Assembly (NCBI GenBank): GCA_001798595.1
Contig: MGSS01000114.1
Coordinates: 2,034 to 66,033, forward strand
Length of the DNA stretch: 64,000 bases
Origin: Deltaproteobacteria bacterium RIFCSPLOWO2_12_FULL_60_19
Lineage (GTDB): Bacteria > Desulfobacterota > Binatia > UBA9968
Direction of reading: 5' to 3'
Shown here: in pieces, positions 5,246 through 30,766 of the stretch
Layout of the letters: each line of letters starts with the position of its first letter
How positions within the stretch are numbered: position 1 is the first letter of the stretch
Translations under genes and position numbers: made by a program
The notes under the pieces: model-generated
What the model was told of the DNA's origin: nothing
The model's database searches: none
Seen by the model: the letters and a program-made list of their open reading frames with translations, nothing else

Positions 5246-5322
5246 CGGGGCGTAGCGCAGCCTGGTAGCGCACCTGCCTTGGGCGCAGGGGGTCGGACGT
5301 TCAAATCGTCTCGCCCCGACCA
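5246..5322 (+). tRNA. tRNA-Pro(TGG)
   Basis: Hand-folded cloverleaf: acceptor CGGGGCG/CGCCCCG, anticodon loop CTTGGGC, T-loop GTTCAAATC, 3' CCA encoded. Confidence 0.85.
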
Positions 5323-5418
5323 GCGGATAGTGAGCAGTGAGTAGTGATGAGTGAGCAGCAGAGAGGTCGGGAAGTTGGGCACTGCTCACTACTCACTTTC
5401 TCACTGCTTACTCTTTTC

Positions 5419-5495
5419 GCGCCAGTAGCTCAGGTGGATAGAGCAACGGCCTTCTAAGCCGTAGGTCAGGGGTTCGAATCCCTTCTGGCGCGCCA
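5419..5495 (+). tRNA. tRNA-Arg(TCT)
   Basis: Acceptor GCGCCAG/CTGGCGC, anticodon loop CTTCTAA, GGTTCGAATCC T-arm, CCA encoded. Confidence 0.85.
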
Positions 5496-5611
5496 GCCTC
5501 AGAAGAAGTGAGTGGTGAGTAGTAAGACAGTGAGCAGAAAGAATAGGTTCTCAATTCTCCGCCAGCTACTAACGCCTCACTGGTGGTTGAGGGGGGAGGC
5601 GGAGATATCGT

Positions 5612-5690
5612 GGTGAGTGTAGCTCAATTTGGTTAGAGCACTGGACTGTGGCTCCAGGGGTTGAGGGTTCAAATCCCTTCACTCACCCCA
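5612..5690 (+). tRNA. tRNA-His(GTG) with extra 5' G(-1)
   Basis: G-1 plus acceptor GTGAGTG/CACTCAC, anticodon loop CTGTGGC, discriminator C, CCA encoded. Confidence 0.8.
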
Positions 5691-5782
5691 AGCCCTACGG
5701 GAGGGCGAACCTCAGATTTCAGATTTCAAATAACCTGGGATCTGTAATCTGAGATCTGAGATTCCGAGCGTAGCGAGGATAC

Positions 5783-5858
<76 letters not shown>

Positions 5859-6086: not shown

Positions 6087-6296
6087 ATGAAACAATTCGT
6101 TGTAACTCTGACACCTGGCGAAGACGGCTACATCGTTGCCGAATGCCCCTCCTTGCCCGGTTGCGTCTCTCAAGGCAAGACCAAAGACGAAGCCTTGCAA
6201 AACATCAAGGAAGCCATCGAAGGCATCCTTGAGGTCCGCCGCGGGATGAACAATCCCATTGCTCCGCCGGAAGTCCGTTTCATCGAAATCGCCTGA
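6087..6296 (+). CDS. hicB: HicB-family antitoxin (UPF0150)
   Basis: 69 aa. ATG 6087 lies downstream of a strong SD (GGAAGGAGAG). Motifs: TLTPGEDGYIVAECPSLPGCVSQGKTKDEALQNIKEAIEG. The reading frame overlaps hicA by 1 nt. Confidence 0.7.
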   Translation: MKQFVVTLTPGEDGYIVAECPSLPGCVSQGKTKDEALQNIKEAIEGILEVRRGMNNPIAPPEVRFIEIA

Positions 6297-6514
6297 TGCC
6301 AGCCCCGCCCGTGATCTCGGGCCGGGAAGCGGCCAAAGCCTTCCAAAAGATCGGCTTTCTTTTTCATCACCAAACCGGCAGCCATATGATCTACTACCGG
6401 TCCGATGGCCGCCATCTTTCCATCCCCGATCATAAAGAGCTTGATCGAGGAACCTTGCGCGGCCTCATCAAAGGCGCCGGGATCACGGTCGAAGAATTCG
6501 TCAATCTGCTGTAG
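6296..6514 (+). CDS. hicA: HicA-family mRNA-interferase toxin (YcfA-like)
   Basis: 72 aa with the HicA pattern: G.E..KA..K.GF...HQTGSH.IY....GR.L.IP.H.KELDRGTLRG.IK.AGI. Confidence 0.7.
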   Translation: MPAPPVISGREAAKAFQKIGFLFHHQTGSHMIYYRSDGRHLSIPDHKELDRGTLRGLIKGAGITVEEFVNLL

Positions 6515-6935: not shown

Positions 6936-7853
6936 GTGAATGACCTGACCCAGGCCCGACCTCCCTTGTCCGTGGTGATCGGCGCTACCCAGCCGTGGCC
7001 CGAGATTCGCGGCTGCCTGGATTCGCTCTATGCGCAGGCCAGCGCCGCCGGGGTGGAAATCCTCGTTGCAGATGGAACCGGCCGCGCCCTGCCGGAAAAT
7101 TCACCCTATCCGGAAGTGCGCCGCCTCGAATCCCTCGGAGCGACCGTTTTCCAACTGCGCGCGCTCGCGATGGCCGAAGCGCAAGGCGAGATCGTCGCGG
7201 TCACTGAAGATCATTGCCGCGTGGCGCCGGATTGGTGCGGGCAGATCTTGCGTGCGCATCGCGAGTTTCCCGACGCGGCCGTGATCGGGGGCGCGGTGGA
7301 GAACGGCGCCACGGCGCGGCTGATCGACTGGGCCAATTTCTTCGCGTCGAACGACCGTTTTCTCCCGCCGCTCCCGGCCGGCCAGGATGGAACGGCGACG
7401 GGGCAAGCCAATATTTCATACAAGAGGCGCGTGATTCCCTGCGAATACCCGGCGCTCGATATCCTGGAAAAGTTTTACAATGAACGGCTTCGGGAGCGAG
7501 GCGAGAAGATCATCAACGACGGCAGAATTATCGTGGCGCACGTTCAGTCGTTGGGCTTTTGGGGCAGTTGTCTCATCCATTATCACGATGCGCGCGTCGT
7601 GGCCGGATTTTATCTCCCGCGCATCTCGACCCTTACCCGGCTGCTGCGCATCGCCAAGTGCCTGGCCTTTCCCCTGAGGGTTCTCGTCGCGACGGCGCGC
7701 ATCACTTTACGGACCATCCTCCGCAAGCCGGGCTACCGCGGGCGCATGTTGATGAGTTGCCCGTTGGTCGCCGTGCTGTTCTGCTTTCATACGGCCGGAG
7801 AGTTGGCTGGGTGCATCGCCGGTCCGGGCGATAGCCCGAGCCGGATGCGTTGA
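6936..7853 (+). CDS. GT2-like glycosyltransferase with C-terminal hydrophobic membrane anchor (candidate polyprenol-phosphate sugar synthase, Dpm1/GtrB-like topology)
   Basis: 305 aa, GTG start. The N-terminal half is a GT-A-like Rossmann region (SVVIGATQPW...EILVADGTG...VTEDHC). The C-terminal 90 aa hold about two predicted transmembrane segments. Size and topology fit Dpm1/GtrB/ArnC-type enzymes. The motifs are divergent, so the family call is tentative. Confidence 0.5.
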   Translation: MNDLTQARPPLSVVIGATQPWPEIRGCLDSLYAQASAAGVEILVADGTGRALPENSPYPEVRRLESLGATVFQLRALAMAEAQGEIVAVTEDHCRVAPDWCGQILRAHREFPDAAVIGGAVENGATARLIDWANFFASNDRFLPPLPAGQDGTATGQANISYKRRVIPCEYPALDILEKFYNERLRERGEKIINDGRIIVAHVQSLGFWGSCLIHYHDARVVAGFYLPRISTLTRLLRIAKCLAFPLRVLVATARITLRTILRKPGYRGRMLMSCPLVAVLFCFHTAGELAGCIAGPGDSPSRMR

Positions 7854-7878: not shown

Positions 7879-8958
7879 CTAGCGCGATCTGCGCAGGCTG
7901 AAATAGATCGCAGCGCTTCCCACGATCAAGACGGAAACGACGCCGGCCGTTTTGGAATGAAACGACAGGACGGCCATGAGTCCCGAAACCGCAGCGACCC
8001 CGTAGAGAACCAGAACGGCGCGCGATTCTTCCATTCCCATGGCCATGAGCCGGTGATGAATATGCTCCTGGTCCCGGCGGAAGATCGCCAGGAGGCGACC
8101 GAAGAAAACTTCGCGCCCGTTAGCGCTGCCGTTGGCCGGCGACTGCCGGAATCCTCGGCGGATCACGGCCAGCAGCGTGTCCGCGATCGGCAGAGAAAGA
8201 GCGAGAATCGGCGCGAGGAGCGGCACGCCGTCGGCTTGCTGCGCGCCCCGCACGTAGAGCACCGCCAGCAGATAGCCGACGAACATGCTCCCGGAGTCGC
8301 CCATGAAGATCGAGGCGGGGGAAAAATTGTAATAGAGAAATCCGCCGAGCGCGCCGGCCAGCGCGACCGTGAGCAGGGCGACGTCCAGCCGGCCCGTTGT
8401 CAAGCTGATGATCGATAACGTCAAAGAGGCGATCAGGCCGACGCCCGCCGCCAGGCCGTCGAGACCGTCGATCAGGTTAAAGGCGTTGGTGATCCCGATG
8501 ATCCAGAGCAGCGTGATCGGCGCGGCGAGCCAGCCGAGGAGGATCGTATTGCCGGTGAGCGGATCGATGATTCGCCCGACGCCGTGGCCGTCGGCGACGA
8601 CCATCGCCGCGGCTATCGTTTGGAAGACGATCTTGGTGATCGGCTTGAGCCTGTAGACATCGTCGGCCAGGCCGAGAGCCGCGATCAGGATCGTCCCGCC
8701 GAACGCCCAGCGCCAGCTCCAAAATAATGTCCCGAGCACGGCGATGTGCCCTGGATTCACCAGAAGGGCGAGCCCTATCGAGCCGGCCAGCGCGGCCAGG
8801 ACGGCCAGGCCGCCGAGCGACGGCACGGGGCTACGGGTGGAGCGCGGGTCGCTGCGCCGGTCGACGACGCCGAAACGCAATGCCACGGCGCGAACGAGCG
8901 GCGTCGCGAGCAAACTCAATCCGGCAGCGGTGAGTCCCAGGAGTAAGTATATCAGCAC
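7879..8958 (-). CDS. Polyprenol-phosphate N-acetylhexosamine-1-phosphate transferase (WecA/MraY/Alg7 PNPT family)
   Basis: 359 aa polytopic membrane protein, GTG start. PNPT signatures: LGLADD, NAFNLIDGLDGLAAG, FMGDSGS, and HIHHRL near the C-terminus. Divergent from the oligosaccharyltransferase gene. Confidence 0.88.
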   Translation of the reverse strand: MLIYLLLGLTAAGLSLLATPLVRAVALRFGVVDRRSDPRSTRSPVPSLGGLAVLAALAGSIGLALLVNPGHIAVLGTLFWSWRWAFGGTILIAALGLADDVYRLKPITKIVFQTIAAAMVVADGHGVGRIIDPLTGNTILLGWLAAPITLLWIIGITNAFNLIDGLDGLAAGVGLIASLTLSIISLTTGRLDVALLTVALAGALGGFLYYNFSPASIFMGDSGSMFVGYLLAVLYVRGAQQADGVPLLAPILALSLPIADTLLAVIRRGFRQSPANGSANGREVFFGRLLAIFRRDQEHIHHRLMAMGMEESRAVLVLYGVAAVSGLMAVLSFHSKTAGVVSVLIVGSAAIYFSLRRSR

Positions 8959-9343
8959 GTAATGATTTCTCCCGCACCGTCAGCCCGCCTGGGAATCTCC
9001 CTCCGGGCCGATGCGATACGTCGGTGTTACGCTGCTCCCAGGAACTGAGAGTAGCTCCGAGTCACGGTTGTATCTCCTCGGCCCACGCATCGGCCCTTCG
9101 AGAGACCCCCAGGCGGGCGCGATGGCGGCTGTGCTCAATCGCTTCGGTTTCAATCATGCTCACAGAAAAACTCGCGTTCGGCAGAGACTAAAAGTTTTCC
9201 GTCTGAATGGCAAGAACAAAAAAGCCGGACGCGATCGCGGCACATGTTGCGGTTGAAGGGTTTGGCCCTTGCGGATATAGTTTCAGATTCGCCGCCCTCG
9301 AACGCTGGATTTTTTCGCTTGCGGAGGGTGGCCTCTATCACCC

Positions 9344-12163
9344 ATGCGGTCCATTTTAACCAAATTCAGCGGGGAAAGGGCAGTGTGCTGGGCGCTCGTC
9401 CTGGCGTGCACGGCCGTGGTTCTCTGGGTCCGAGCGCTTCCTTCGTCGCTTCCGGCCGCCGAGGAACTTACCGAGAGGATGGCATGGCGCAAAGTGCGGG
9501 AGCGGCTGGCGGCGGAACAGACAAACCGGCCTGCCGGGGAGGAGGGGAAGGCGCGCGTCGAAGAGGCGGCTCGCGAGTGGGTGGAAAATAATCGAGCTGA
9601 ATACGATGCCGCCAAAGCGTCGCTCACGGTCCAGTTGAAATCGGATATGAGCTTCGAAGCCGGAGATGGGCGGCGGTATGCCTATCTCGGCGACTTCGAC
9701 AGCTACGTGTGGCTGCGCAACGCGCGCAACTATCTCCGCCAAGGGACCACGTGCGATGCGGTGGTCGACGGCGAGTGCCGGGACAGCTACGGCCATGCGC
9801 CGGTGGGGTCTCGCATGATCTACAACCGCTCGCTCCACATCGCCGCGATTGTGGGCGTCCATAAACTGGCCACGCTGTTCAATCCCGGCTATCCTCTTTC
9901 GGCGAGCGCGTTTCTCGTGCAAGTCCTGGTCGGGGCGTTGGGGGCGCTCCCCGCCTTCTTCCTCGGCCGCCATTTTGGGGGCAATCTCGGCGGACTCTTT
10001 GCGGCGCTCCTGATATCGCTCCAGCCCGTGTTTCTCTACCGCAGCCTTGGCAGCGACAACGACGTGTGGAACGTGGTGTTGCCGTTGTTTATCGGGTGGG
10101 CGGCGCTCGCGGCGTTAAAATCCCCAAAAATCCTTCTTGCGGGAACCTACGCAGTCCTGGCAGGGGCGTGGACCGGAATCCATGCCTCAGTCTGGCGCGG
10201 GTGGGTTTTTACTTACGCCGTCGTATTGTGCGCCGCGCTCGGCTACTTGGCTCTCGTCGGCATCAGGCAGGCGATGCGTGAGGGGGTGCGGCGCCTGTGG
10301 CAGGCTGAAGAGGTTCGAAAGATCGCCTGCGTGGTCGTGGCTTACTACGTCGCCGCAGGCCTCTTTACGCTGCTCGCCGGCGCCGGCGATTCCGGCTTTT
10401 TCGGTCCGTTGCAGTCCATCGCCGCGGACCTGAGGTCGAGGCTGGACATCAGCGAGAAGGCCGCCACGCGGAACCTTTGGCCGCCGGTGTTCAATACGGT
10501 CGGGGAGCTGAGGAGGCCGTATTCGGAGGGAATCGTGCGGCTGATGGGCGGCGCGCTGTTTTTCTTCGGCGGCTGGCTTGGCCTCTTGTCGCTCCTCCTG
10601 CCCAAGCGAGGCTGGCGATGGCCTGAGTTTACTCTCGCAGGTTCCACGACGGTTCTCCATGTCTTGGGCTATTACGTTTTCGCCGCGAGCGATCTCGGCA
10701 ACGCGGTCGTTCTCTTGTTCGCCCTGTTGCCGGGGGCGTACCTGATCTTTCGGGTATGCAGCCGGAGTTCCGATCGAAACTTCGACCCCGGGCCGGCGCT
10801 GCTGATCCTTGTCTGGTTTATCGTCGCCCTCAGCATGTTTTATTACGGCACCCGTTTTTCGATTCTGTTTGTCGTCCCGTTCGGCGTTGCGTTTGGAGCC
10901 GGCGCCGATCGTGTCCGGCAGTGGCTCGCCGGGCAGATGCTCCGCATGGCGCCGCGCTTTCCGTCGATCGCGAGCGCCGCGAGCTATGCCGTTATGCTGG
11001 CCGTTCTTGCGCCGCCGGTTCTCGCCGGCTATGCGACGGCGAAGAACCATCGGCCGGACATCCATTCGGCGTGGTGGAACAGTCTAGGCAAGATTCGCGA
11101 GGAATCCCGGCCGGACGCCATCGTCAATGTCTGGTGGGACTACGGCTATTGGGCCAAGTACGCGGCCGAGCGGCGAGTCAGCCACGACGGCGGCTCGCTC
11201 CAAACCCACCTTCCCCATTGGTTAGCCAAGGCGCTGGTCGCGCCGACGGAAGCGGAGAGCCGCGGCATCCTGCGGATGCTCGACTGCGGGTCGGATGCCA
11301 CGCCTCTGCCGGAAGGCGCTCAGGGAGCCTATGGCAAGCTCAGGGCGACGGGGCTGGACGACGTCGCAGCCTACGCGATCCTGTTGAAGGTCGTTAAGCT
11401 CAGCCGGGCCGAGGCCGAGCGCTATCTTGCCGACCGGGGGCTGACCCCGGCGCAACAAAGGGACATTCTTGCCGCCACGCACTGCCGGCCTCCCGAGGCA
11501 TTTCTCGTCCTCAGCCGGGACATGATGCGCGCGGAAAAATGGATCAGGCTCGGCACGTGGGACGTGGCGAGAGCCTATCTGGCTCATCGCACGCGGCGGC
11601 TGCCGAGAGACTTGGGCGAGCAGGAGCTTCGAGATCGCTTCGACGCCAGTCCCGCCGAGGCGCGGGCGTTTTACAAGCGGCTCGCGGCGATGGAATCGGC
11701 AACCGAGATAGCCGACTACGTCGCGCCGCCGCAGCGCCTGATATCCAGGGAGTGGGTTTCGTGCGGCAGCGCGGACGGCGGAGCGGAGATGAGTTGCCGG
11801 ATTGCCGTCCCCCACGAGGGACAAACAAAAATTCTCTATTTCTTATACGACCCCGCCTTGCCAAAAGAGGGCAGGTTGAAAGACGACCAGGGCGAAGGCC
11901 GGCCGGCCGTCACTCTCGTGGCCGGAGCCGAGCGGCTGGAAGAGAGCGCCGCTCTGTCGCCGGAGTTTCCCGAGGTGGGCGTGTTGATGGACCCGGCCAA
12001 CCAGCGCATCCTCATCGGCTCGCCGTTGTTGATCCGCTCGACGATAGTGCGCCTGCTTTACCTAGGCGAGCGCTATCCCAAATACTTCAAGCCGTTCGAC
12101 CGCAGGAGCACGCTGCTCGGCGACGAAGTCACAACCTGGAAGATAGAGTGGGAGGGGGAGTAG
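9344..12163 (+). CDS. STT3/AglB/PglB-family oligosaccharyltransferase (GT-C, N-glycosylation)
   Basis: 939 aa with about 13 N-terminal TM helices and a large C-terminal soluble domain. WWDYGYW lies at residues 597-603 (nt 11132..11152). A DGGSLQTHLPHW motif follows it, resembling the eukaryotic/archaeal DNNTWNNTHI (DK-type) region. The first external loop has GDFDSYVWLRNARNY (cf. STT3 DPYFNYR). The second loop has GSDNDVWN (cf. GSYDNE). A 385-nt leader precedes the gene. Confidence 0.8.
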   Translation: MRSILTKFSGERAVCWALVLACTAVVLWVRALPSSLPAAEELTERMAWRKVRERLAAEQTNRPAGEEGKARVEEAAREWVENNRAEYDAAKASLTVQLKSDMSFEAGDGRRYAYLGDFDSYVWLRNARNYLRQGTTCDAVVDGECRDSYGHAPVGSRMIYNRSLHIAAIVGVHKLATLFNPGYPLSASAFLVQVLVGALGALPAFFLGRHFGGNLGGLFAALLISLQPVFLYRSLGSDNDVWNVVLPLFIGWAALAALKSPKILLAGTYAVLAGAWTGIHASVWRGWVFTYAVVLCAALGYLALVGIRQAMREGVRRLWQAEEVRKIACVVVAYYVAAGLFTLLAGAGDSGFFGPLQSIAADLRSRLDISEKAATRNLWPPVFNTVGELRRPYSEGIVRLMGGALFFFGGWLGLLSLLLPKRGWRWPEFTLAGSTTVLHVLGYYVFAASDLGNAVVLLFALLPGAYLIFRVCSRSSDRNFDPGPALLILVWFIVALSMFYYGTRFSILFVVPFGVAFGAGADRVRQWLAGQMLRMAPRFPSIASAASYAVMLAVLAPPVLAGYATAKNHRPDIHSAWWNSLGKIREESRPDAIVNVWWDYGYWAKYAAERRVSHDGGSLQTHLPHWLAKALVAPTEAESRGILRMLDCGSDATPLPEGAQGAYGKLRATGLDDVAAYAILLKVVKLSRAEAERYLADRGLTPAQQRDILAATHCRPPEAFLVLSRDMMRAEKWIRLGTWDVARAYLAHRTRRLPRDLGEQELRDRFDASPAEARAFYKRLAAMESATEIADYVAPPQRLISREWVSCGSADGGAEMSCRIAVPHEGQTKILYFLYDPALPKEGRLKDDQGEGRPAVTLVAGAERLEESAALSPEFPEVGVLMDPANQRILIGSPLLIRSTIVRLLYLGERYPKYFKPFDRRSTLLGDEVTTWKIEWEGE

Positions 12164-12165
12164 GT

Positions 12166-13275
12166 CTACCATCGGCCTTTCATGATCTCCTCGCAGGCGG
12201 CGACTAAGTTCTCCGCCGCGTCGAGCTCGATGGGAAGTTTGGCCGGGCTGGATGAATGCTTTCGGGATTCGTAGTCGCGGAAAAATGAGACGATCTCGGA
12301 CGCCAGCGAATTGACTTCCCACTCTTCTTCCCGGACCCACAACCCTTCCCCCGCTTCTGCAAAGGCCATCGCATTTGGAATCTGGTGATCGGAGGCGGCG
12401 GTGGAGAGAGGCACCAGCAGAGCGGGCAAATTACAGACCCGCAGCTCGGAAATGGTCTGCGATCCGGCGGAGCAGATAGCAAAATCCGCCCAGACGTAGG
12501 CCCCGGCCATGTCGTCAATAAAGGTTGTCACCGACGCGACGACGCCCGCCCGGCTGTAAGCGGAGCGGGTGGGTTCTAAAGAGACCTCGCCCGCCTGGTG
12601 CAGCACCTCAGGAACAAGACCATGCTTTGCAACTTCGGGCAGCAACGCGGGGACGCTGCGATTTAAAAAATTTGATCCGCCGGAGCCGCCGGTGACCAGG
12701 ATTCGCATGCGTGAGCCGGAGAGATCAGAGATGGTCGTTTTTTTGTGCCTGACGGAGACGATCTCTTGACGGACGGGATTGCCGGTCACTATTGTGCGGG
12801 ATTTGGGAAACGCCGATTGGGTCTTCTCGAAAGCGAGATAGATTCTGTCGACCAGACGGCCGAGCCATTTGTTAGTCAGACCGGGAACAACATTGGCCTC
12901 GTGGATCGCGGTGCGTAGTCCCAGGCTCAGCGCGGCGAGTAGGGCACCCCCCGAAGCGTAGCCTCCGAAGCCGATGACCAACTTTATTTTCTTTGTTTTA
13001 AACAGCTGTCGCGCCTGCGCCGTTCCCGCCGCCATGCTTCCCAGAGCGCGAATTTTTCCGCCGACGCCCTCGCCGAGCAGCGGCCCTCCCTGGATCAGTT
13101 CCAGATGGTAGCCGTGGGCCGGAATCAGGCGGGATTCGAGACCGCTCGCCGTGCCGATGAACAAAAATTCCGTCTCCGGGAAAATCCGGTGATACGCATC
13201 CGCCAGCGCCAAGGCCGGATAGACGTGGCCCGCCGTGCCGCCGGCGGCAATGGCTATTCTTCTCTGTGTCGCCAT
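12166..13275 (-). CDS. MurG-like GT28 UDP-GlcNAc transferase (candidate Alg13/Alg14-equivalent adding second GlcNAc; genuine peptidoglycan MurG not excluded)
   Basis: 369 aa. MurG motifs: IAIAAGGTAGHVYPALA, GFGGYASGGALLAALSLGLRTAIHEANVVPGLTNKWL, ILVTGGSGGS, AYVWADFAICSAGSQTISE..LPALLVP. There is no mraY/murD/ftsW/murC context. The gene sits divergently against the ALG1-like gene inside the glycosylation cluster. Confidence 0.75.
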   Translation of the reverse strand: MATQRRIAIAAGGTAGHVYPALALADAYHRIFPETEFLFIGTASGLESRLIPAHGYHLELIQGGPLLGEGVGGKIRALGSMAAGTAQARQLFKTKKIKLVIGFGGYASGGALLAALSLGLRTAIHEANVVPGLTNKWLGRLVDRIYLAFEKTQSAFPKSRTIVTGNPVRQEIVSVRHKKTTISDLSGSRMRILVTGGSGGSNFLNRSVPALLPEVAKHGLVPEVLHQAGEVSLEPTRSAYSRAGVVASVTTFIDDMAGAYVWADFAICSAGSQTISELRVCNLPALLVPLSTAASDHQIPNAMAFAEAGEGLWVREEEWEVNSLASEIVSFFRDYESRKHSSSPAKLPIELDAAENLVAACEEIMKGRW

Positions 13276-13333: not shown

Positions 13334-14653
13334 ATGGCATCCAAACAGGGAACCCGTGTAACCGTCATCGTGCTCGGCGATCTGGGCCGCAGCCCGCGCA
13401 TGAGATACCATGCTCTCGCGCTCGCCGACAGCGGCGTCCAGGTGGATCTGATCGGCTACGCGGGCAGCGCTCTACCGCGGGCGTTGTGCGGCCATCCGCG
13501 GATACGTTGCCATCTGATGGCGCCAATGCCGCTTCGGTTTCTCAATCGCTTTAAAAACGCGCTCTTCCCAGCCGTTTCGCTTGTGAAAATCGTCGTGCAG
13601 GCCGCGCGTCTTTTGTGGCTGCTGCTGTTCGTCGTCGGCAAGCCCGATGCCGTTCTGGTCCAAAATCCCCCGGCGGTTCCGACGCTCATGGTTGCGCTGT
13701 TGTCCGCCCGGCTGCGGTCCGCGAGGCTGATTATCGACTGGCACAATTTCGGCTACACGATGCTCGCTTTGAAATTAGGGTCGTCCAGTTTGATTGTTCG
13801 ATGGATGCGCCGGCACGAGCGGGCGTTGGGCCGCCGCGCGGACGCGCACCTCTGCGTCTCGCGCGCGATGCAGCTCGAATTAGAAAATCACTGGGGGTTC
13901 TCCAAGGCGACTCTGCTCTATGATCGCCCGGCGGCCGGTTTCATGTCCGCCGAGCCGGATGAGCGTCGCGCGCTGCTCCACCGCCTCACGTCCGTCTCGG
14001 CTCTCGTGCCCACGCAGTATCGCCTGGATGCGCCGGCGCGGCCGGCGATCCTCGTCAGCGCGACGAGCTGGACGCAGGATGAAGATTTTGATTTGCTTCT
14101 CGACGCGCTCGCTCGGTGCGATCGGGCCCTTCGACCGTTCGACGGGGCTTACGGCTCAGGGCAGGCCGTCCGCGAGCGCAAACGACTTCCGTTCCCGCGC
14201 CTCCTGATGTTAATCACCGGCGACGGTCCCCTGCGCGAGTCCTATGAAGCCCGCATCCGCGGCATGTCCCTCAACCGCATTCACGTGCAGACGCTCTGGC
14301 TGTCGCCGGAAGATTATCCGCTCTTGCTCCGGGCCGCCGACCTCGGCGTCTGCCTGCACCGGTCTTCGTCCGGGCTCGACCTTCCGATGAAAGTGGCGGA
14401 CATGCTGGGCTCCGGTCTGCCCGTCTGCGCGCTCGACTACGGCCCCTGTCTCGGGGAGCAGCTCCGACACGGCGAGAACGGCCTTCTTTTTTCCGACAGC
14501 GGCGGACTGGCGGAGCAAATCTTGGACTTATTCAATGGATTTCCGGATGAGAGCCCTTTGCTCGATCGATTGCGATGTAACATCTTAGGCTCAACCCGGC
14601 GTCGTTGGTCGGAGGAGTGGCGGGACGCGGCGTTCTCGACCATTATCGGATAG
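13334..14653 (+). CDS. ALG1-like beta-1,4-mannosyltransferase (GT33 family; chitobiosyl-diphospho-polyprenol mannosyltransferase candidate)
   Basis: The similarity to eukaryotic ALG1 covers most of the length (about 40-470 of 472 aa). Matching motifs include PRMRYHALALADSG..V.LIGY (ALG1 PRMQYHALSLA), LVQNPPAVP....ARLIIDWHNFGYTML (ALG1 LQNPPGLP...KLVIDWHNYGYSIM), LCVSRAM..L...W, ILVSATSWTQDEDFDLLLDAL (ALG1 LLVSSTSWTEDEDFSILL), MLITGDGPLRESY, and WLSPEDYPLLLRAADLGVCLHRSSSGLDLPMKVADMLGSGLPVCALDY (near-identical to ALG1). The ORF track starts at 13235. That longer form would add a hydrophobic N-terminal segment, but it would overlap the divergent gene and include the AT palindrome, so ATG 13334 is preferred. 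Confidence 0.78.
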   Translation: MASKQGTRVTVIVLGDLGRSPRMRYHALALADSGVQVDLIGYAGSALPRALCGHPRIRCHLMAPMPLRFLNRFKNALFPAVSLVKIVVQAARLLWLLLFVVGKPDAVLVQNPPAVPTLMVALLSARLRSARLIIDWHNFGYTMLALKLGSSSLIVRWMRRHERALGRRADAHLCVSRAMQLELENHWGFSKATLLYDRPAAGFMSAEPDERRALLHRLTSVSALVPTQYRLDAPARPAILVSATSWTQDEDFDLLLDALARCDRALRPFDGAYGSGQAVRERKRLPFPRLLMLITGDGPLRESYEARIRGMSLNRIHVQTLWLSPEDYPLLLRAADLGVCLHRSSSGLDLPMKVADMLGSGLPVCALDYGPCLGEQLRHGENGLLFSDSGGLAEQILDLFNGFPDESPLLDRLRCNILGSTRRRWSEEWRDAAFSTIIG

Positions 14654-14753: not shown

Positions 14754-16595
14754 TTGATGATAGCGCAACTCAAAAAATGCCGGGCGTTATTATCGCCGCG
14801 CACGCGCTGGCGCTGGGCCGCGTTGATTCCGCTGGCGGTGGCGGCGGCGGCAATGGAAGCGTTGGGCGCCGCGGCGGTCTTTTTTCTCATCAAAGTTCTT
14901 AGCGATCCGACGCAAGCGACCGCCTACCCGCTCGTCTCCTCGCTCATCGCCATGCTCCCATGGCACAGCAGCGAGACGGTCGTGCCATCGCTCACGTTCC
15001 TCGTGGCCGTTTTCTATCTGTTCAAAAACAGCCTGTTGGCCTGTGTGACGTACGCGCAGAGGAAGGTGGTGAGCGACTCCCAGGCCGCGCTGGCACGCCG
15101 GATGCTCCAGGGCTATCTCGCGCTGCCGTACGCGGCGCACCTGCGCCGCAACTCGGCGGAGCTGGTGCGCAACATGACGGATTCGGTTCACAAAACCTTC
15201 CACAATGTTCTGTTGCCGGCCTTGGGAGTCGTCACGGAGCTGTTGGTGGTCATAGGCATCATCATCGTGCTGATGGCCACGGCCCCGTGGGTGACGCTGA
15301 TCGCGGTGGGAGTGTTGTTCAGCGCGATGGCCGCGCTATTGAAGCTGACGCGCTATCGCATCGCGCGATGGGGCGCCCAGGAACAGGGGCTGAGAAAGGA
15401 CACGCTCCAGAGTTTGCATCAGAGCATGGGCGGGCTGAAAGAGATCAAGGTGATGGGTCGCGAGCGATTCTTCTACGCCAGGTTTTCCCGCTTGCAGCAA
15501 GCGCTCGCCGACGTCACTTGTTTTTATGAAACCCTCGCTTACATCCCTCCGCTCCTGGTGGAGATGATCTTCGTCTTCGGCATGGTGGTGGTGATCCTGT
15601 CGATCACGGCGCGAGGCGGTCCGGGAGAGAACGCCATTCCGCTGCTTGGGCTTTGCGCGTACGGCGGCTTCCGGGTCATGCCGGCCGTGAACCGGGTTCT
15701 TAGGCATTTGAACCATATCCGGTTCGGCACGGCGGCGATCGATCAGCTTTACCGCGACCTCAAGCTGTTCGACGACAATCCCGGCGGCGGTCTAGGTCCA
15801 TCCGGGGAAAAAGGCACCCGATTCGCGGATCGGATCGTGCTCGAGCGGGTACGCTACACCTACGAAGGCAGCGCGACGCCGGCCCTGCGCGAGATCGACC
15901 TCACTATTCGTTGCGGCGAATCCGTTGGGATTGTCGGTCCAACCGGCTCGGGGAAAAGCACCTTGATCAATGTCATCCTCGGCCTCCTGCGTCCGTCGTC
16001 GGGACGGCTGACGGTCGATGGCAGGGATGCCTTCGATAATCTCCGTCTCTGGCAGCGCAAAATCGGCTTTGTGCCGCAGGAGATCTATCTCACCGACGAC
16101 AGCCTGCGCCGCAACATCGCTTTTGGGCTGGAGGACGAAGAGATCGACGAGCGACAGGTGAAAGCGGCCATCCGCCTGGCGCAGCTCGAGGACCTGGTAG
16201 CGTTGTTGCCGCTCGGCCTCGACACCGTAATCGGCGAACGGGGCATACGGCTGTCGGGCGGCGAGCGCCAGCGCGTGGCGATCGCGCGGGCGCTCTATCA
16301 CGAGCCGGAACTGCTGGTGTTCGACGAAGCGACCTCGGCCTTGGACAACCAGACCGAACGCGCGGTCTCCCGCGCGATCGACGCCTTGCAAGGCAACAAA
16401 ACTCTGATTCTTATCGCCCACCGGTTGAGCACCGTGCGCAAGTGCGGCCGCCTGATATTTTTGTGCGCCGGCCGGGTGGCCGGCAGCGGCACCTTCGAAC
16501 AACTGTTGCAGACCAACAGAGAGTTCCGCGAGCTGGTCGCCAGCTACGATCCCGCCGACGCCGCTGCTACCGAGATCCCGCCGGGCCGGATGTAG
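14754..16595 (+). CDS. ABC exporter, fused permease plus ATPase (MsbA/PglK/Wzk-like; candidate lipid-linked oligosaccharide flippase)
   Basis: 613 aa. The N-terminal domain has six TM helices. Walker [13 protein letters not shown] signature [15 protein letters not shown], Walker [13 protein letters not shown], and the H-loop are all present. Confidence 0.85.
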
Positions 16596-17745
16596 ACGCG
16601 GCATCGAATTCGTTTACGATTTCCCGGATGCGGCGGATGAAATGATCGACGGAGAACAACGACTTCTGCCCGCTTAAATGGGAGCGCAGAGAGAACCGCA
16701 AGTCCGCGTCGGTCATCGCCCGGATAATTTTTGTCGCCGCCTCCTCACGTGTCCCGTATAAGAGACGATCCTCTTTTCCGATAATTTCCGTCAGGCCGCC
16801 GCCGCGGGGGGCGAAGACGATGCAGCCCCCCTGGATCATCTCCGCCACCGCCATCCCGAAGTGCTCCTCTTCCATGCCGTGAATGCCGTAGCGGTGGGTC
16901 GAGACCAACCGGACGAGCCGTTCGCGCGGGACATCCTCTTCAAAAAAGATCCAAGAGGCGTTGGCTCGCACGCGCCGCAGGATGCGCTCGTAGTAATGTC
17001 GGGGATCGTCGCGGCTGCCTATAAGGTGCAGATGGAGATCGGAGCCGCCGCTTCTCAGCCAGGCCAGAATGTCGATAATCTTATCCAGTTCCTTTTCGGG
17101 AGCGATCCGGCCGATGCAGACGAAACCGTTTTCACGCTCCTGCCACGGGATGTCGGGAAAATCGGCGGCAATGGGCGGGTAAAGCACGATGCTTTCGATG
17201 CCATGCCGCTCTCTCACTTTGCTGCCGGTCCAGGCCGAGTTCACGAGGGTGAGATTCTGCCGCATCTGGTCAAAGGAAAATCCCGCAACCTGCGCGCACA
17301 AGCGATGATAGGCGTTCACCACACCCGGAAAGCGGTGGTACCAACTTAAGTCCGCCGGCGGACGGGGCAGGCACGCCCACGGGAAATGGATATATTGGAT
17401 TCCAGGACGGCCAAAGTCGGCTTCGTTGTTGGCCGTGATGATAACGTCATAATCGTTCTTCAACTTTTTGCAGAAGCGCAGCAAGAGATGGTTCTTCAAC
17501 AAGCTTGCCGGCGTGGGAACCAGGGCCAGGAGCCGGCGCAGAGCCGGGGGGACGCCATAGGCCCGGAAGTCCGCCGCGCTGAGCGCGGTGCCGTAGTAAC
17601 GATTGATCGAGTCGAGGTGGACGGGCTCCCACGTCAGCAGCGAAACGGCGTGGTCCCGTTTCAGGGCCTCGACGATCCAGACGGCGACCCCATTGCCTCC
17701 TCCCGGCGGCTGCATCGACGGCTGAACCAGCAGAATTGTTTTCAT
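16567..17745 (-). CDS. GT4 (GT-B) glycosyltransferase, Alg2/Alg11-type mannosyltransferase candidate
   Basis: Track ORF 16567..17811. The preferred start is ATG 17745 (MKTILLVQPS...PPGGGNGVAVW), which matches the GT4 N-terminus. The C-terminal EEHFGMAVAEMIQGGCIVFAPRGGGLTEII matches the GT4 E.FG...E.M..G.P.....GG..E motif. A 29-nt convergent 3' overlap with the ABC gene is present. Confidence 0.72.
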   Translation of the reverse strand: MKTILLVQPSMQPPGGGNGVAVWIVEALKRDHAVSLLTWEPVHLDSINRYYGTALSAADFRAYGVPPALRRLLALVPTPASLLKNHLLLRFCKKLKNDYDVIITANNEADFGRPGIQYIHFPWACLPRPPADLSWYHRFPGVVNAYHRLCAQVAGFSFDQMRQNLTLVNSAWTGSKVRERHGIESIVLYPPIAADFPDIPWQERENGFVCIGRIAPEKELDKIIDILAWLRSGGSDLHLHLIGSRDDPRHYYERILRRVRANASWIFFEEDVPRERLVRLVSTHRYGIHGMEEEHFGMAVAEMIQGGCIVFAPRGGGLTEIIGKEDRLLYGTREEAATKIIRAMTDADLRFSLRSHLSGQKSLFSVDHFIRRIREIVNEFDAASTSGPAGSR

Positions 17746-17971
17746 CGGAGAACTTGAGATGCGAGTGACTTGCAATCCGTGCGCCTCGCGCCACGGAAAC
17801 TTAGCACACAAAACGAAAGATTGTGAACTGCCGGGGCTTCGCGGGTGAGCATCTCCGTCGCCGCGTTACGGTTTGGCCTTGACTTAGGCGCGGTTGTTCC
17901 CTACTCTTTTTTCTGAGTTTGGTTACTTACGGGACTTTGAGTCGCCGGCTTCGGCGTTCCGGCCAAAAAAC

Positions 17972-18054
17972 GCGAGAGTGGCGGAATTGGCAGACGCACT
18001 AGACTTAGGATCTAGCGGGTAACCGTGGGGGTTCGACTCCCCCCTCTCGCACCA
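17972..18054 (+). tRNA. tRNA-Leu(TAG), long variable arm
   Basis: Acceptor GCGAGAG/CTCTCGC, anticodon loop CTTAGGA, 13-nt variable arm, T-arm GGGGGTTCGACTCCCCC, CCA encoded. Confidence 0.8.
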
Positions 18055-24252: not shown

Positions 24253-24327
24253 GGGCGGTTAGCTCAGCGGGAGAGCATCGGCCTTACAAGCCGGGGGTCA
24301 CAGGTTCAAATCCTGTACCGCCCACCA
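24253..24327 (+). tRNA. tRNA-Val(TAC)
   Basis: Acceptor GGGCGGT/ACCGCCC, anticodon loop CTTACAA, T-arm CAGGTTCAAATCCTG, CCA encoded. Confidence 0.82.
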
Positions 24328-24429
24328 GGGACAATGCAAAAGGAAAAATGGAAAATAGAATCAAAAGAACGCGAGTTTGTCGGGACGTCATTTTGCCTTT
24401 TGCATTTTTCATTTTGCATTGACTTTATC

Positions 24430-24506
24430 GGGGTCGTAGTTCAGCTGGATAGAACGCCGGCCTGTCACGCCGGAGGTCGCGAGTTCGAGTCTCGTCGGCC
24501 CCGCCA
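24430..24506 (+). tRNA. tRNA-Asp(GTC)
   Basis: Acceptor GGGGTCG/CGGCCCC (one G-U pair), anticodon loop CTGTCAC, T-arm GCGAGTTCGAGTCTCGT, CCA encoded. Confidence 0.82.
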
Positions 24507-28815: not shown

Positions 28816-28890
28816 GCTGGCGTAGCTCAACGGCAGAGCAGCTGATTTGTAATCAGCAGGTTGTAGGTTCAAGTCCTATCGCCAGCTCCA
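28816..28890 (+). tRNA. tRNA-Thr(TGT)
   Basis: Acceptor GCTGGCG/CGCCAGC, anticodon loop TTTGTAA, CCA encoded. Confidence 0.8.
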
Positions 28891-29008
28891 GAGACAGGGG
28901 ATCGAGCGGGATGGGATTTGTAATCACCGAGGACCGGCCCTTCGACGTTGCTCAGGACAGGCAAACGAGTAGGGATGCCGGTTGTGGATTGAAGGGAAAG
29001 GGAGAAGC

Positions 29009-29093
<85 letters not shown>

Positions 29094-29097
29094 GTTT

Positions 29098-29173
29098 GCG
29101 GGAATAGCTCAGTTGGTAGAGCGCGAGCCTTCCAAGCTCGGGGTCGCGGGTTCGAGTCCCGTTTCCCGCTCCA
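29098..29173 (+). tRNA. tRNA-Gly(TCC)
   Basis: Acceptor GCGGGAA/TTCCCGC, anticodon loop CTTCCAA, T-arm GCGGGTTCGAGTCCCGT, CCA encoded. Confidence 0.82.
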
Positions 29174-29197
29174 ATTTGTGTCGTCCCCGACTGGCGT

Positions 29198-29270
29198 GCC
29201 CAGGTAGCTCAGTCGGCAGAGCACGTCCTTGGTAAGGACGAGGTCGGCGGTTCGATCCCGCTCCTGGGCT
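29198..29270 (+). tRNA. tRNA-Thr(GGT), CCA not encoded
   Basis: Acceptor GCCCAGG/CCTGGGC, anticodon loop TTGGTAA, T-arm GGCGGTTCGATCCCGCT. It lies immediately upstream of tuf, the classic Thr-Tyr-Gly-Thr-tuf arrangement. Confidence 0.8.
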
Positions 29271-30688: not shown

Positions 30689-30766
30689 GGGTCAGTAGCT
30701 CCAACTGGCTAGAGCGCCGGACTCCAAATCCGGTCGTTGCAGGTTCGAGTCCTGCCTGACCCGCCA
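30689..30766 (+). tRNA. tRNA-Trp(CCA)
   Basis: Acceptor GGGTCAG/CTGACCC, anticodon loop CTCCAAA, T-arm GCAGGTTCGAGTCCTGC, CCA encoded. Confidence 0.82.

Follow-up and report, generated by a model that had tools for sequence, protein, structure and literature searches.

Which class of oligosaccharyltransferase (OST) does this bacterial locus encode, and what kind of glycan would the enzyme transfer? Among bacteria, N-OSTs are so far known as the PglBs of Campylobacterota and of some Desulfobacterota. The window, i.e. the entire 64,000-nucleotide stretch of DNA analyzed here, carries the bacterial markers rpoB, EF-G, tig, clpXP and lon, and contains an OST gene in the midst of glycan-assembly genes (Table 1).

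Table 1. Positions in the window of the OST gene, its sequence motifs, its promoter and the neighboring glycan genes.
Feature	Position	Strand	Remarks
GT2-family glycosyltransferase, hydrophobic C-terminus	6936..7853	+	Pfam Glycos_transf_2 E 2.9e-7
Polyprenyl-phosphate HexNAc-1-phosphate transferase (GT4; WecA/ALG7-DPAGT1/MraY superfamily)	7879..8958	-	Pfam Glycos_transf_4 147 bits
Sigma-70-like promoter of the STT3 gene (predicted), TTGAAG-N17-TATAGT	9253..9281	+	Consensus scan
OST gene (STT3/AglB/PglB superfamily)	9344..12163	+	939 aa, single-subunit
First DXD (EL1), D117-F-D119	9692..9700	+	D119 invariant; D117 in 63/67
Second DXD (EL2), D238-N-D240	10055..10063	+	Both Asp invariant, 67/67
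TIXE-type motif (EL5), T385-V386-G-E388	10496..10507	+	V386 and E388 invariant; T385 in 58/67
R504	10853..10855	+	Invariant; aligned to AfAglB R426 (profile-to-PDB)
WWDYG motif, aa 597-601	11132..11146	+	WWD nearly invariant in family; G601 invariant
DGGK-motif position, D615-G-G-S618	11186..11197	+	Prokaryotic type, without double sequon
DK/MI position, D726-M-M-R729-A-E-K732-W733	11519..11542	+	Kinked helix; probably a degenerate Lys/Arg-type DK variant
MurG-type GT28, predicted β-1,4-GlcNAc transferase	12166..13275	-	TIGR01133 murG 266.5 bits, cut-off 250.25
Putative ALG1-type (GT33-like) β-1,4-mannosyltransferase homologue	13334..14653	+	439 aa from ATG 13334
ABC exporter, MsbA/PglK type	14754..16595	+	NCBIfam MsbA 298, PglK 280 bits; both below cut-offs
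GT1-family (CAZy GT4-like) glycosyltransferase	16567..17811	-	Pfam Glycos_transf_1 E 3e-13

Fold and family of the enzyme

A first-pass annotation of the window had described the product as an STT3/AglB-like OST, and its reading frame and all of its motif coordinates proved correct. The description itself is borne out by the Pfam models STT3 (PF02516; 91.1 bits, E 1.4e-25, cut-off 24.5) and STT3-PglB_core (PF21436; 25.3 bits, cut-off 23); since both scores exceed their cut-offs, the family match is not due to chance. The protein consists of an N-terminal multi-pass membrane domain extending to approximately residue 567, and a periplasmic domain of some 370 residues. External loop EL1 is long (approximately residues 36–163, i.e. 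about 130 residues) and contains a helical hairpin. Three Cys pairs are conserved, one in EL1 and two in the periplasmic domain. One sequon lies within the OST itself.

The AF2 model of the OST (pLDDT 90.6, pTM 0.90) comprises a GT-C membrane domain and a C-terminal globular domain, and is nearer to the OST fold than to other GT-C folds. The top Foldseek match, aligned over the full length, is Campylobacter lari PglB (E 4e-15, TMt 0.65). The gene product is an intact member of the STT3/AglB/PglB (GT66) superfamily, with the OST fold and every catalytic motif.

About 1,300 clusters at 50% identity make up this large OST family, for which we found no published description. One orthologue is 85% identical, and full-length homologues at 24–29% identity are present in metagenome-assembled genomes of Woesearchaeota and Nanoarchaeota. 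In a neighbor-joining (NJ) tree, the bacterial OST clade is sister to the DPANN clade, and the enzyme belongs to a large, separate clade made up of Binatia-type and other uncultured bacteria together with DPANN archaea. An ancient inter-domain transfer is likely.

Catalytic motifs and the Ser/Thr-pocket helix

Conservation was counted in 67 OST homologues of 37–85% identity, and the DXD and TIXE residues were equated with structural residues by motif and position. The acidic residues D119, D238, D240 and E388 are kept in all 67, and the predicted metal ligands in EL1 and EL5 are both present. The EL1 segment GDFDSYVWLRNARN (residues 116–129) includes the D119-x-Y-x-W-x-R-N-A-R pattern that had been noted before; D119, which is kept in nearly all DPANN relatives covering that region, is the predicted catalytic, metal-binding Asp. 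The SDND pattern, likewise noted before, is formed by residues 237–240, where D238-N-D240 matches D161-H-H163 of Archaeoglobus fulgidus AglB (AfAglB) by motif register. In EL5, E388 would be the equivalent of AfAglB E360, an assignment based on motif pattern and invariance, HMMER having misaligned EL5. In the alignment, the OST family shares T-V-x-E with the AglBs of DPANN archaea and Thermococcus; S-V-x-E is found instead in Nitrosopumilus and in one of the two Desulfurococcales sequences. TIXE is the type of EL5 motif found in Archaea and Bacteria, and SVSE is eukaryotic (PMC8342417); T385-V-G-E388 is of the TIXE type, and the earlier label "eukaryotic-type motifs" has to be dropped. AfAglB R426, to which R504 aligns, is situated near the lipid-phosphate site (PMC8342417). 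WWDYGYW covers residues 597–603, at nucleotides 11132–11152 as the first-pass annotation had it. The DPANN relatives keep the same catalytic residues in the alignment.

The stretch following WWDYG, SHDGGSLQTHLPHW (residues 613–626, nucleotides 11180–11221), had been likened to the DK/DNNTWNNTH region of eukaryotic and archaeal STT3. It holds the DGGK-motif position as defined in PMC8342417, occupied by D615-G-G-S. The DNXTZNX[T/S] double sequon, which follows WWDYG in Eukarya, Asgard and TACK (PMC8342417), is absent here, as D615-G-G-S-L-Q-T-H holds no Asn. Nor does the DK/MI element directly follow WWDYG, where it had been placed; the helix D726–W733 lies some 125 residues further downstream, and in the model a strand (719–724) leads into helices 725–729 and 732–738. 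At the position of this kinked helix the DPANN relatives have a strict D-M-x-G-K-x-G-V-W, and the bacterial clade is variable except for W733. No M..I pair is in register with W733 in the OST, and the relatives carry Lys as the second signature. The pocket helix appears to derive from a Lys-type DK variant that is strict in the nearest relatives, the DPANN AglBs. Because the second Ser/Thr-pocket signature residue varies in the bacterial clade, the sequon specificity is uncertain.

Functionally, we expect D119, D238/D240 and E388 to bind a divalent metal and to provide for carboxamide activation. The backbone of the sequon would be paired by T385-V-x-E388, and the +2 Ser/Thr would be bound by WWD597–599 together with the kinked helix.

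These features bear directly on the class of the enzyme. If it were of the PglB type, orthologous to the Campylobacter and Desulfovibrio enzymes and part of a pgl-like locus, this would agree with the bacterial host, the top Foldseek match, the D-x-D in EL2 and the PglK-like ABC transporter in the cluster. We nevertheless consider such an assignment improbable, as the NCBIfam PglB equivalog model (NF050801) gives 16.5 bits against a cut-off of 1300, the profile E-values against AfAglB (3e-9), STT3A (8e-8) and PglB (1e-7) place the family at about equal distance from all three, and it is DPANN archaea, not Campylobacterota or Desulfovibrio, that supply the nearest relatives beyond the bacterial clade. 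All PglBs are MI-type, with the motif MXXIXXX(I/V/W) and Ile as second signature (PMC3703281), which the OST lacks; it is also about 230 residues longer, owns a 130-residue EL1, and is encoded next to a WecA-type GT4 initiator at a locus without a PglC-type initiating transferase. On this point, the first-pass annotation had drawn the right distinction. The eukaryotic-type STT3 that it had proposed instead can draw on the HMMER alignment of D615GGSLQTH with DNNTWNNTH of STT3A, with the terminal T-H in common, and on a pocket from the Lys-type DK motif, as in STT3. Against this, EL5 reads TVGE rather than SVSE, the double sequon is missing, EL2 has D-x-D and not D-x-E (definitions in PMC8342417), and the relatives found by sequence come from DPANN archaea and bacteria, not from TACK, Asgard or eukaryotes, which leaves that assignment with very little credibility. 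We find it equally hard to believe that the OST is a catalytically dead or degenerating paralogue: WWP or QWD does replace WWD in some family members (P0099, L005 and L003), and the bacterial clade has a degenerate DK position, but the enzyme of the window keeps every catalytic and WWDYG residue, its reading frame is intact, its promoter is conserved and an orthologue at 85% identity exists. The archaeosortase-A-associated AglB model TIGR04154 (archaeo_STT3) scores 48.9 bits, below its cut-off of 450. We classify the OST, on its motifs and relatives, as apparently prokaryotic-type and AglB-like with Lys-type pocket ancestry, and place it outside both the PglB orthologues and the eukaryotic-type STT3s.

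The glycan-assembly module and its proposed pathway

The GT4 gene has WecA as its best NCBIfam match (107 bits, below cut-off) and scores 76 bits with the MraY model, which has a cut-off of 192 and for that reason excludes MraY; PDB matches are weak, and include both MraY and human GPT. The protein is predicted to be the initiating enzyme that makes Und-PP-GlcNAc. The MurG-type GT28, which matches E. coli MurG (1F0K) with E 3e-59, is predicted to add a second GlcNAc to give chitobiose, as eukaryotic ALG13/14 does. The ALG1-type protein has a longer version starting from GTG 13235 that overlaps the MurG gene, carries GT4-type and GT1-type Pfam domains, and is 100% identical to A3F90_15365 (NCBI; Deltaproteobacteria bacterium RIFCSPLOWO2_12_FULL_60_19). 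Its label comes from IMG homologues named "beta-1,4-mannosyltransferase", and most of the named matches are Binatia. No PDB relatives were found for this protein or for the GT1 protein. In a preprint (bioRxiv 10.1101/2025.10.15.682550), an ALG1 homologue from Binatia complemented yeast alg1Δ and produced a Man1GlcNAc2-PP-lipid that is accepted by human ALG2; of the five bacterial homologues assayed there, two were inactive. The assayed "BiALG1" may be a protein other than the one in the window. The ABC exporter is a predicted flippase for the lipid-linked oligosaccharide, and the GT1 enzyme (gene-caller start 17745, 392 aa) would extend the glycan by one or more sugars. The GT2 gene occurs in contig L001 and is absent from L083, L089 and L090, marking it as accessory and specific to this genome.

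The order GT4-STT3-MurG-ALG1-ABC(-GT1) recurs in L001, L004, L083 and L091, in the last with three extra ORFs between the STT3 and MurG-type genes. L003 keeps STT3, MurG-type, ALG1-type, ABC and GT1 genes, with no GT4 match, and in L090 the module recurs in an unrelated genomic context, with GT4 and STT3 overlapping as an operon. GT4 adjoins STT3 in L004, L083, L090 and L091; in the same four, the MurG-type gene accompanies STT3 and ALG1, and it accompanies ALG1 in L089 as well. The ABC gene is conserved in the cluster across the relatives' loci, and GT1 follows it at the same position in L090 and L091. A trigger-factor flank is common to L001, L083 and L091, and L083 also shares the Ham1 side. 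The OST gene resides in a bacterial chromosome, within a module whose conservation extends over several genomes and more than one genomic context. A recently acquired horizontal island was considered and rejected, as the GC3 of the cluster genes (0.70–0.82) agrees with that of housekeeping genes (0.75–0.83) and synteny of the locus extends to relatives with STT3 proteins of only 49% identity. On its left, the cluster is bordered by tRNAs and a HicAB pair.

The OST gene had been credited with a 385-nt untranslated leader. The gap (8959–9343) exists, but it separates the divergent GT4 and STT3 genes and contains a conserved promoter, and the leader interpretation is not supported. The consensus scan of the gap gave one site where 0.1 is expected, and neither hexamer differs between the window, L091, L083 and L004, even though the identity of the STT3 proteins is only about 49%. 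Transcription from the predicted promoter would give the STT3 gene a 5' UTR of about 55 nt. An Rfam search of 8959–9343, with gathering and E-value thresholds, returned no match; the 85% orthologue conserves only the proximal ~200 nt of the gap, and the spacer in relatives is 166–206 nt. A riboswitch or structured leader was rejected on these grounds, and the region is best described as a divergent promoter region.

Based on the cluster, we propose that the pathway would begin at the cytoplasmic face, where the WecA-like GT4 would make undecaprenyl-PP-GlcNAc, to which the MurG-type GT28 would add a β1,4-linked GlcNAc and the ALG1-type enzyme a β1,4-linked Man. GT1, and here perhaps also GT2, would add one or a few more sugars, the PglK/MsbA-like transporter would flip the lipid-linked glycan to the periplasm, and the OST would pass it en bloc to exported proteins, at the Asn of their N-x-S/T sequons. 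The OST and its conserved cluster are accordingly predicted to form a bacterial N-glycosylation pathway with a Man-GlcNAc2-type core, the pathway part being deduced from gene content. A GlcNAc-GlcNAc-mannose core also starts eukaryotic N-glycans.

Alternatively, the GT4, MurG, ALG1, GT and ABC proteins could make a surface glycolipid or polysaccharide, or the MurG could be a housekeeping enzyme, with the STT3 loosely coupled, using another glycan or acting on a non-protein acceptor. L089 has, at the same locus, the genes GT4-MurG-ALG1-GT4-ABC without an STT3 gene, from which it follows that glycan-assembly genes can occur without an adjacent OST; more distant clade members adjoin quite different sugar genes, namely a GT2 with a DsbA-like gene, or Epimerase_2, AsnB, GT4s and Bac_transf. 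The MurG-type protein, moreover, is 46–51% identical to MurGs of genuine dcw clusters (ftsW-murG-ftsQ) and passes the murG equivalog cut-off. Its context, on the other hand, is the STT3/ALG1 module and not dcw, and the three dcw-type MurGs group in a single subclade of an NJ tree, the remainder of which consists of contig-linked, cluster-type MurGs. Loose coupling is at odds with the finding that at least five independent contigs have STT3 placed between the GT4 and MurG genes and with the operon-like arrangement in the different genomic context of L090, and the sequon-binding motifs TIXE and WWD are conserved. To our knowledge, all STT3-superfamily (GT66) enzymes characterized so far are protein N-OSTs, which also speaks against these readings. 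We regard these alternatives as unlikely. The best overall explanation, and in our judgment a reasonably probable one, is an intact AglB-like OST of a separate clade that sits in a conserved module and would N-glycosylate proteins by the pathway proposed above. We put forward only tentatively the further idea that a eukaryote-type Manβ1,4-GlcNAcβ1,4-GlcNAc core, built on polyprenyl pyrophosphate by a working bacterial N-glycosylation pathway, may be handed to an AglB-type OST shared with DPANN archaea, and that Binatia-like bacteria might have been the source of the eukaryotes' ALG1 and possibly of a MurG-like ALG13/14 step.

Relation to known systems

The OST gene represents a large, uncharacterized clade of AglB-like enzymes whose members come from DPANN archaea, Binatia-type bacteria and other uncultured bacteria, and its linkage to MurG-type and ALG1-type genes provides a physiological context for active bacterial ALG1 homologues. 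The ALG1 preprint (bioRxiv 10.1101/2025.10.15.682550) mentions neither an OST nor a gene cluster. The origin of ALG1, called "unknown" in Lombard 2016 (PMC4973528), is a long-standing question, and the cluster offers a defined set of genes with which to test it directly. Glyco-engineering in E. coli could also profit from an OST whose natural donor in a bacterial periplasm is of the GlcNAc2-Man type.

Compared with eukaryotic STT3, the OST has neither SVSE nor the double sequon, and accessory subunits are not evident. The second GlcNAc transferase of the cluster is a fused MurG-type GT28, whereas eukaryotic ALG13/14 is split; relative to the ALG7-ALG13/14-ALG1 pathway, the cluster uses an ABC transporter as flippase and has no lumenal GT-C ALG enzymes. 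With the PglBs of C. lari and C. jejuni the OST shares a bacterial, periplasmic, single-subunit organization and the D-x-D of EL2, and with the pgl locus a PglK-like ABC flippase and the arrangement of glycan-assembly genes. It differs from PglB in the MI motif, the equivalog score and its length, and where the pgl locus has PglC/A/J/H/I and bacillosamine genes, the cluster has genes of the WecA, MurG and ALG1 types.

Archaeal AglB (A. fulgidus and P. furiosus AglB-L, both with known structures) resembles the OST in being a single-subunit enzyme of 850–1000 residues overall, with two DXD motifs, a TIXE-type EL5, WWDYG, DGG-x and a large periplasmic domain; the pocket helix of the OST probably also goes back to a Lys-type DK variant. 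The OST is set apart by its bacterial host, an identity of only 24–29% to DPANN proteins, the EL1 of about 130 residues with its helical hairpin and Cys pair, and the two further periplasmic Cys pairs; the signature Lys of the DK motif is not kept in the bacterial clade, the OST having R729 and K732. The donor lipid of AfAglB is dolichol monophosphate (PMC8342417), whereas the predicted donor of the OST is a pyrophosphate-linked undecaprenyl glycan from a WecA-type enzyme. The nearest actual relatives, aligned over their full length, are the uncharacterized AglBs of the DPANN Woesearchaeota and Nanoarchaeota.

Fold and conserved features of the oligosaccharyltransferase

The STT3-like gene (9344-12163, + strand) is an uninterrupted open reading frame encoding 939 aa, and ATG 9344 is the earliest possible start because an in-frame stop lies at 9278. 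In Pfam, the N-terminal 450 residues match STT3 (91 bits, E 1.4e-25), and the STT3/PglB/AglB core domain covers residues 593-641; the STT3 match is real and not a chance hit. The motif strings listed in the first-pass annotation are all in place: GDFDSYVWLRNARN (aa 116-129), SDND (aa 237-240), WWDYGYW (aa 597-603; nt 11132-11152), and SHDGGSLQTHLPHW (aa 613-626). Across 67 aligned homologues (37-85% identity), D119, D238, D240, V386, E388, R504 and G601 are invariant and W597-W598-D599 nearly so. The same alignment reveals three conserved cysteine pairs (C137/C145, C648/C714 and C807/C818), which suggests periplasmic disulfides in the family.

The AlphaFold2 model built on this alignment is confident (pLDDT 90.6, pTM 0.90). 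A multi-helix membrane domain extends to approximately residue 567; its first external loop (~36-163) is unusually long and contains a helical hairpin. The WWDYG motif is borne on a mixed α/β unit, which is followed by a helical insertion (~636-712), a strand (719-724) leading into a broken, or "kinked", helix (725-738), and a β-rich C-terminal unit (805-934). As judged by Foldseek, the closest structure is PglB (E 4e-15, TMt 0.65, full length), then STT3A/STT3 and AglB, with other GT-C enzymes ranking behind the oligosaccharyltransferases (OSTs). The first-pass annotation took an absence of the acidic ligands, or a GT-C fold of an unrelated kind, to speak against an OST; both were looked for and neither was found. 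We regard the assignment of the protein as an OST as secure and very probably correct.

Some family members, namely the homologue P0099 and those on contigs L005 (Binatia) and L003 (Binataceae), have WWDYG replaced by WWP(Y/N)G or QWDYG and keep the DXD and TIXE residues; these may represent paralogues in which acceptor binding has changed or been lost. One family member of 40% identity has a DsbA/thioredoxin-like gene (L084:8755-9852) immediately upstream. The 939-residue protein itself contains a single N-x-S/T sequon, at N161.

Relationship to PglB, AglB and STT3

OSTs are defined by two DXD motifs, an external loop 5 (EL5) motif that is TIXE in Archaea and Bacteria or SVSE in Eukarya, the WWDYG motif, and a DGGK motif, in place of which Eukarya, Asgard and TACK carry the double sequon DNXTZNX[T/S]; a kinked helix bears either the DK motif DXXKXXX(M/I) or the MI motif MXXIXXX(I/V/W), with all PglBs being of the MI type and all STT3s of the DK type (PMC8342417, PMC3703281). 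Here, the DXD motifs are D117-F-D119 and D238-N-D240, the EL5 motif T385-V-G-E388 is of the TIXE type, and the DGGK position reads D615-G-G-S618, with no Asn. The stretch after WWDYG, which had been taken for the DK region, is therefore the DGGK position, in its prokaryotic form. The true DK/MI position is predicted to be D726-M-M-R729-A-E-K732-W733, on the kinked helix of the model. In the bacterial clade W733 is the only conserved residue at this position; the DPANN relatives have an invariant D-M-[VI]-G-K-x-G-V-W in the same columns, a Lys-type variant, and some bacterial members retain E-M-I-x-K-x-x-W-W. The Lys in both groups indicates that the pocket has Lys-type and not Ile-type ancestry.

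This pocket speaks against a PglB, as does the NCBIfam PglB model, which fails by a wide margin (16.5 vs cut-off 1300); TVGE in EL5 and D615-G-G-S618 without the double sequon speak against a eukaryotic-type STT3. The NCBIfam archaeo_STT3 model fails widely as well (48.9 vs cut-off 450), and the family profile matches AfAglB, STT3A and PglB weakly and about equally (E 3e-9 to 1e-7). Judged by sequence, the OST represents a separate deep clade of the superfamily, neither PglB nor eukaryotic-type STT3, in which the motifs are prokaryotic and the pocket ancestry and relatives AglB-like. The earlier reading as AglB-like and not PglB holds; its label "eukaryotic-type" does not, given the TIXE motif and the lack of Asn at DGGK, and neither do its motif assignment and its long leader.

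The family comprises at least 174 clusters at 90% identity in a word-indexed search, and when 1.84 billion representatives were searched exhaustively with a profile, 3,890 matched at E<=1e-3, 1,293 of them at E<=1e-30. Among the hits of the word-indexed search only two carry an organism name, one from Binatia and one from an Acidoferrales MAG. Among species-representative genomes, matches of 32-49% identity that span all or nearly all of the protein, or the larger part of it, come from Binataceae, Binatia, a "Verrucomicrobiia" MAG and an unclassified bacterium, and also from a Deltaproteobacteria MAG where the homologue is cut by the contig end. Whole-length matches of 24-29% identity occur in Woesearchaeota, Nanoarchaeota, MAGs labelled Methanosarcinales, and a few Planctomycetia and Omnitrophota MAGs. 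In a rough neighbor-joining (NJ) tree (768 columns; PglB and eukaryotic sequences left out), the Binatia-type bacterial clade is sister to a DPANN clade, and ordinary AglBs (Thermococcus, Nitrosopumilus, Desulfurococcales, other DPANN) fall outside the pair. This topology suggests one ancient inter-domain transfer, in either direction. The copy from a "Patescibacteria" MAG (L033) nests within Woesearchaeota sequences, and many of the MAGs labelled "uncultured Methanosarcinales" (among contigs L016-L061) group with DPANN; these taxonomic labels, or the binning, may be unreliable.

The predicted glycosylation cluster and its promoter

Genes of the predicted glycosylation cluster in the window
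Gene	Position	Strand	Basis
GT2	6936-7853	+	Pfam Glycos_transf_2
WecA/ALG7-type GT4	7879-8958	-	MraY excluded: 76 bits vs cut-off 192
STT3-like OST	9344-12163	+	Pfam, motifs, fold
MurG-type GT28	12166-13275	-	TIGR01133 266 bits vs 250; E. coli MurG E 3e-59
ALG1-type glycosyltransferase	13334-14653	+	homologues named "beta-1,4-mannosyltransferase" in IMG
MsbA/PglK-like ABC exporter	14754-16595	+	298 and 280 bits, both below cut-off
GT1	16567-17811	-	Pfam Glycos_transf_1

The window is bacterial. Bacterial rpoB, EF-G and trigger factor are encoded on it as well, and ClpP, ClpX and Lon on the identical contig L001. The ALG1-like protein has a 100% match in NCBI protein A3F90_15365 (Deltaproteobacteria bacterium RIFCSPLOWO2_12_FULL_60_19), and its named homologues are mostly from Candidatus Binatia. 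Its mechanical reading frame, from GTG 13235, overlaps the start of the MurG-type gene by 41 nt; the start at ATG 13334 is backed by the gene caller and by homologues, and leaves a divergent spacer of 58 nt.

The order GT4-STT3-MurG-ALG1-(GT)-ABC recurs on four other contigs: in L004; in L083, where the housekeeping flanks are identical and a tandem pair of STT3 paralogues (L083:7146-12790; 927 and 929 aa) takes the place of the single gene; in L091, which encodes the 85%-identical orthologue, with three extra ORFs between the STT3 and MurG-type genes; and in L090, which has an unrelated genomic context and overlapping, co-directional GT4 and STT3 genes. Synteny with L083, kept at an STT3 identity of only 49%, is among the reasons to regard the cluster genes as long-resident in the lineage. 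L003 retains the STT3, MurG-type, ALG1-type, ABC and GT1 genes, with no GT4 match. In L089 (2439-10387), the same locus between the Ham1 and trigger-factor genes holds GT4, MurG-type, radical-SAM, ALG1-type, GT4 and ABC genes and no STT3; the glycan genes can therefore occur without an adjoining OST. More distant bacterial members of the clade adjoin other sugar genes, and no GT4, MurG-type, ALG1-type or GT1 gene was found among the neighbors of the DPANN homologues.

The extra ORFs of L091 (4795-7550) encode 273, 192 and 426 aa, the last with a weak LAGLIDADG_3 match. Immediately to the left of the cluster, at 6087-6514 (L001 gene calls + 2591), is a HicB/HicA toxin-antitoxin pair, and a HicA gene likewise precedes the cluster in L091. 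Twelve tRNA genes form five groups (5246-5855, 17972-18051, 24253-24503, 28816-29270 and 30689-30763), two of which bracket the cluster.

The interval 8959-9343, described in the first-pass annotation as a 385-nt untranslated leader, instead separates two divergent genes and contains a promoter, leaving a short 5' UTR. A sigma-70-like site, TTGAAG-N17-TATAGT (9253-9281), places the transcription start near 9288 and the UTR at ~55 nt. Both hexamers are invariant in four genomes with STT3 proteins down to ~49% identity, the distal ~180 nt of the interval are missing from the 85% orthologue, the GT4-STT3 spacer of relatives measures only 166-206 nt, and an Rfam search of the interval gave no match. 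The short UTR can form a hairpin over GGAGGG (z -2.6), which is not kept in L083 or L004. Upstream of the promoter, a ~60-nt block (9175-9235; GTTCGGCAGAGACTAAAAGTTTTCCGTCTGAATGGCAAGAACAAAAAAGCCGGACGCGATC) is ~97% identical in the 85% orthologue, and the stretch GCAAGAAAAAA within it is shared by L083 and L004 as well; the block may be an operator or the divergent GT4 promoter.

A predicted eukaryote-like glycan core

MurGs from genuine ftsW-murG-ftsQ (dcw) clusters of other bacteria share 46-51% identity with the MurG-type protein. In an NJ tree, these dcw copies, three in number, form part of one subclade, and the remainder of the tree is made up of copies that share a contig with STT3 or ALG1. 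This split and the genomic context of L090 favor a dedicated paralogue in the window cluster.

The origin of ALG1 was listed as unknown by Lombard in 2016 (PMC4973528). According to a 2025 preprint, which mentions neither STT3 nor an operon, a homologue of ALG1 from Binatia rescues yeast alg1Δ and turns GlcNAc2-PP-phytanyl into Man1GlcNAc2, a product that human ALG2 then extends; two of five bacterial homologues tested were inactive (bioRxiv 10.1101/2025.10.15.682550). From the gene content we infer a glycan of composition GlcNAc2-Man-x and protein N-glycosylation itself, and the full pathway predicted in this way is plausible, with an even chance of being correct.

Searches of the literature on Binatia glycosylation, metagenomic bacterial STT3 and DPANN AglB turned up no account of this OST clade or of an STT3-ALG1 cluster. 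The bacterial single-subunit OSTs characterized to date are PglBs, from Campylobacter and Desulfovibrio (PMC12229607); the present locus is of considerable interest because it links an uncharacterized clade of bacterial/DPANN OSTs to enzymes of the ALG1 and MurG types, which would make a eukaryote-like N-glycan core.
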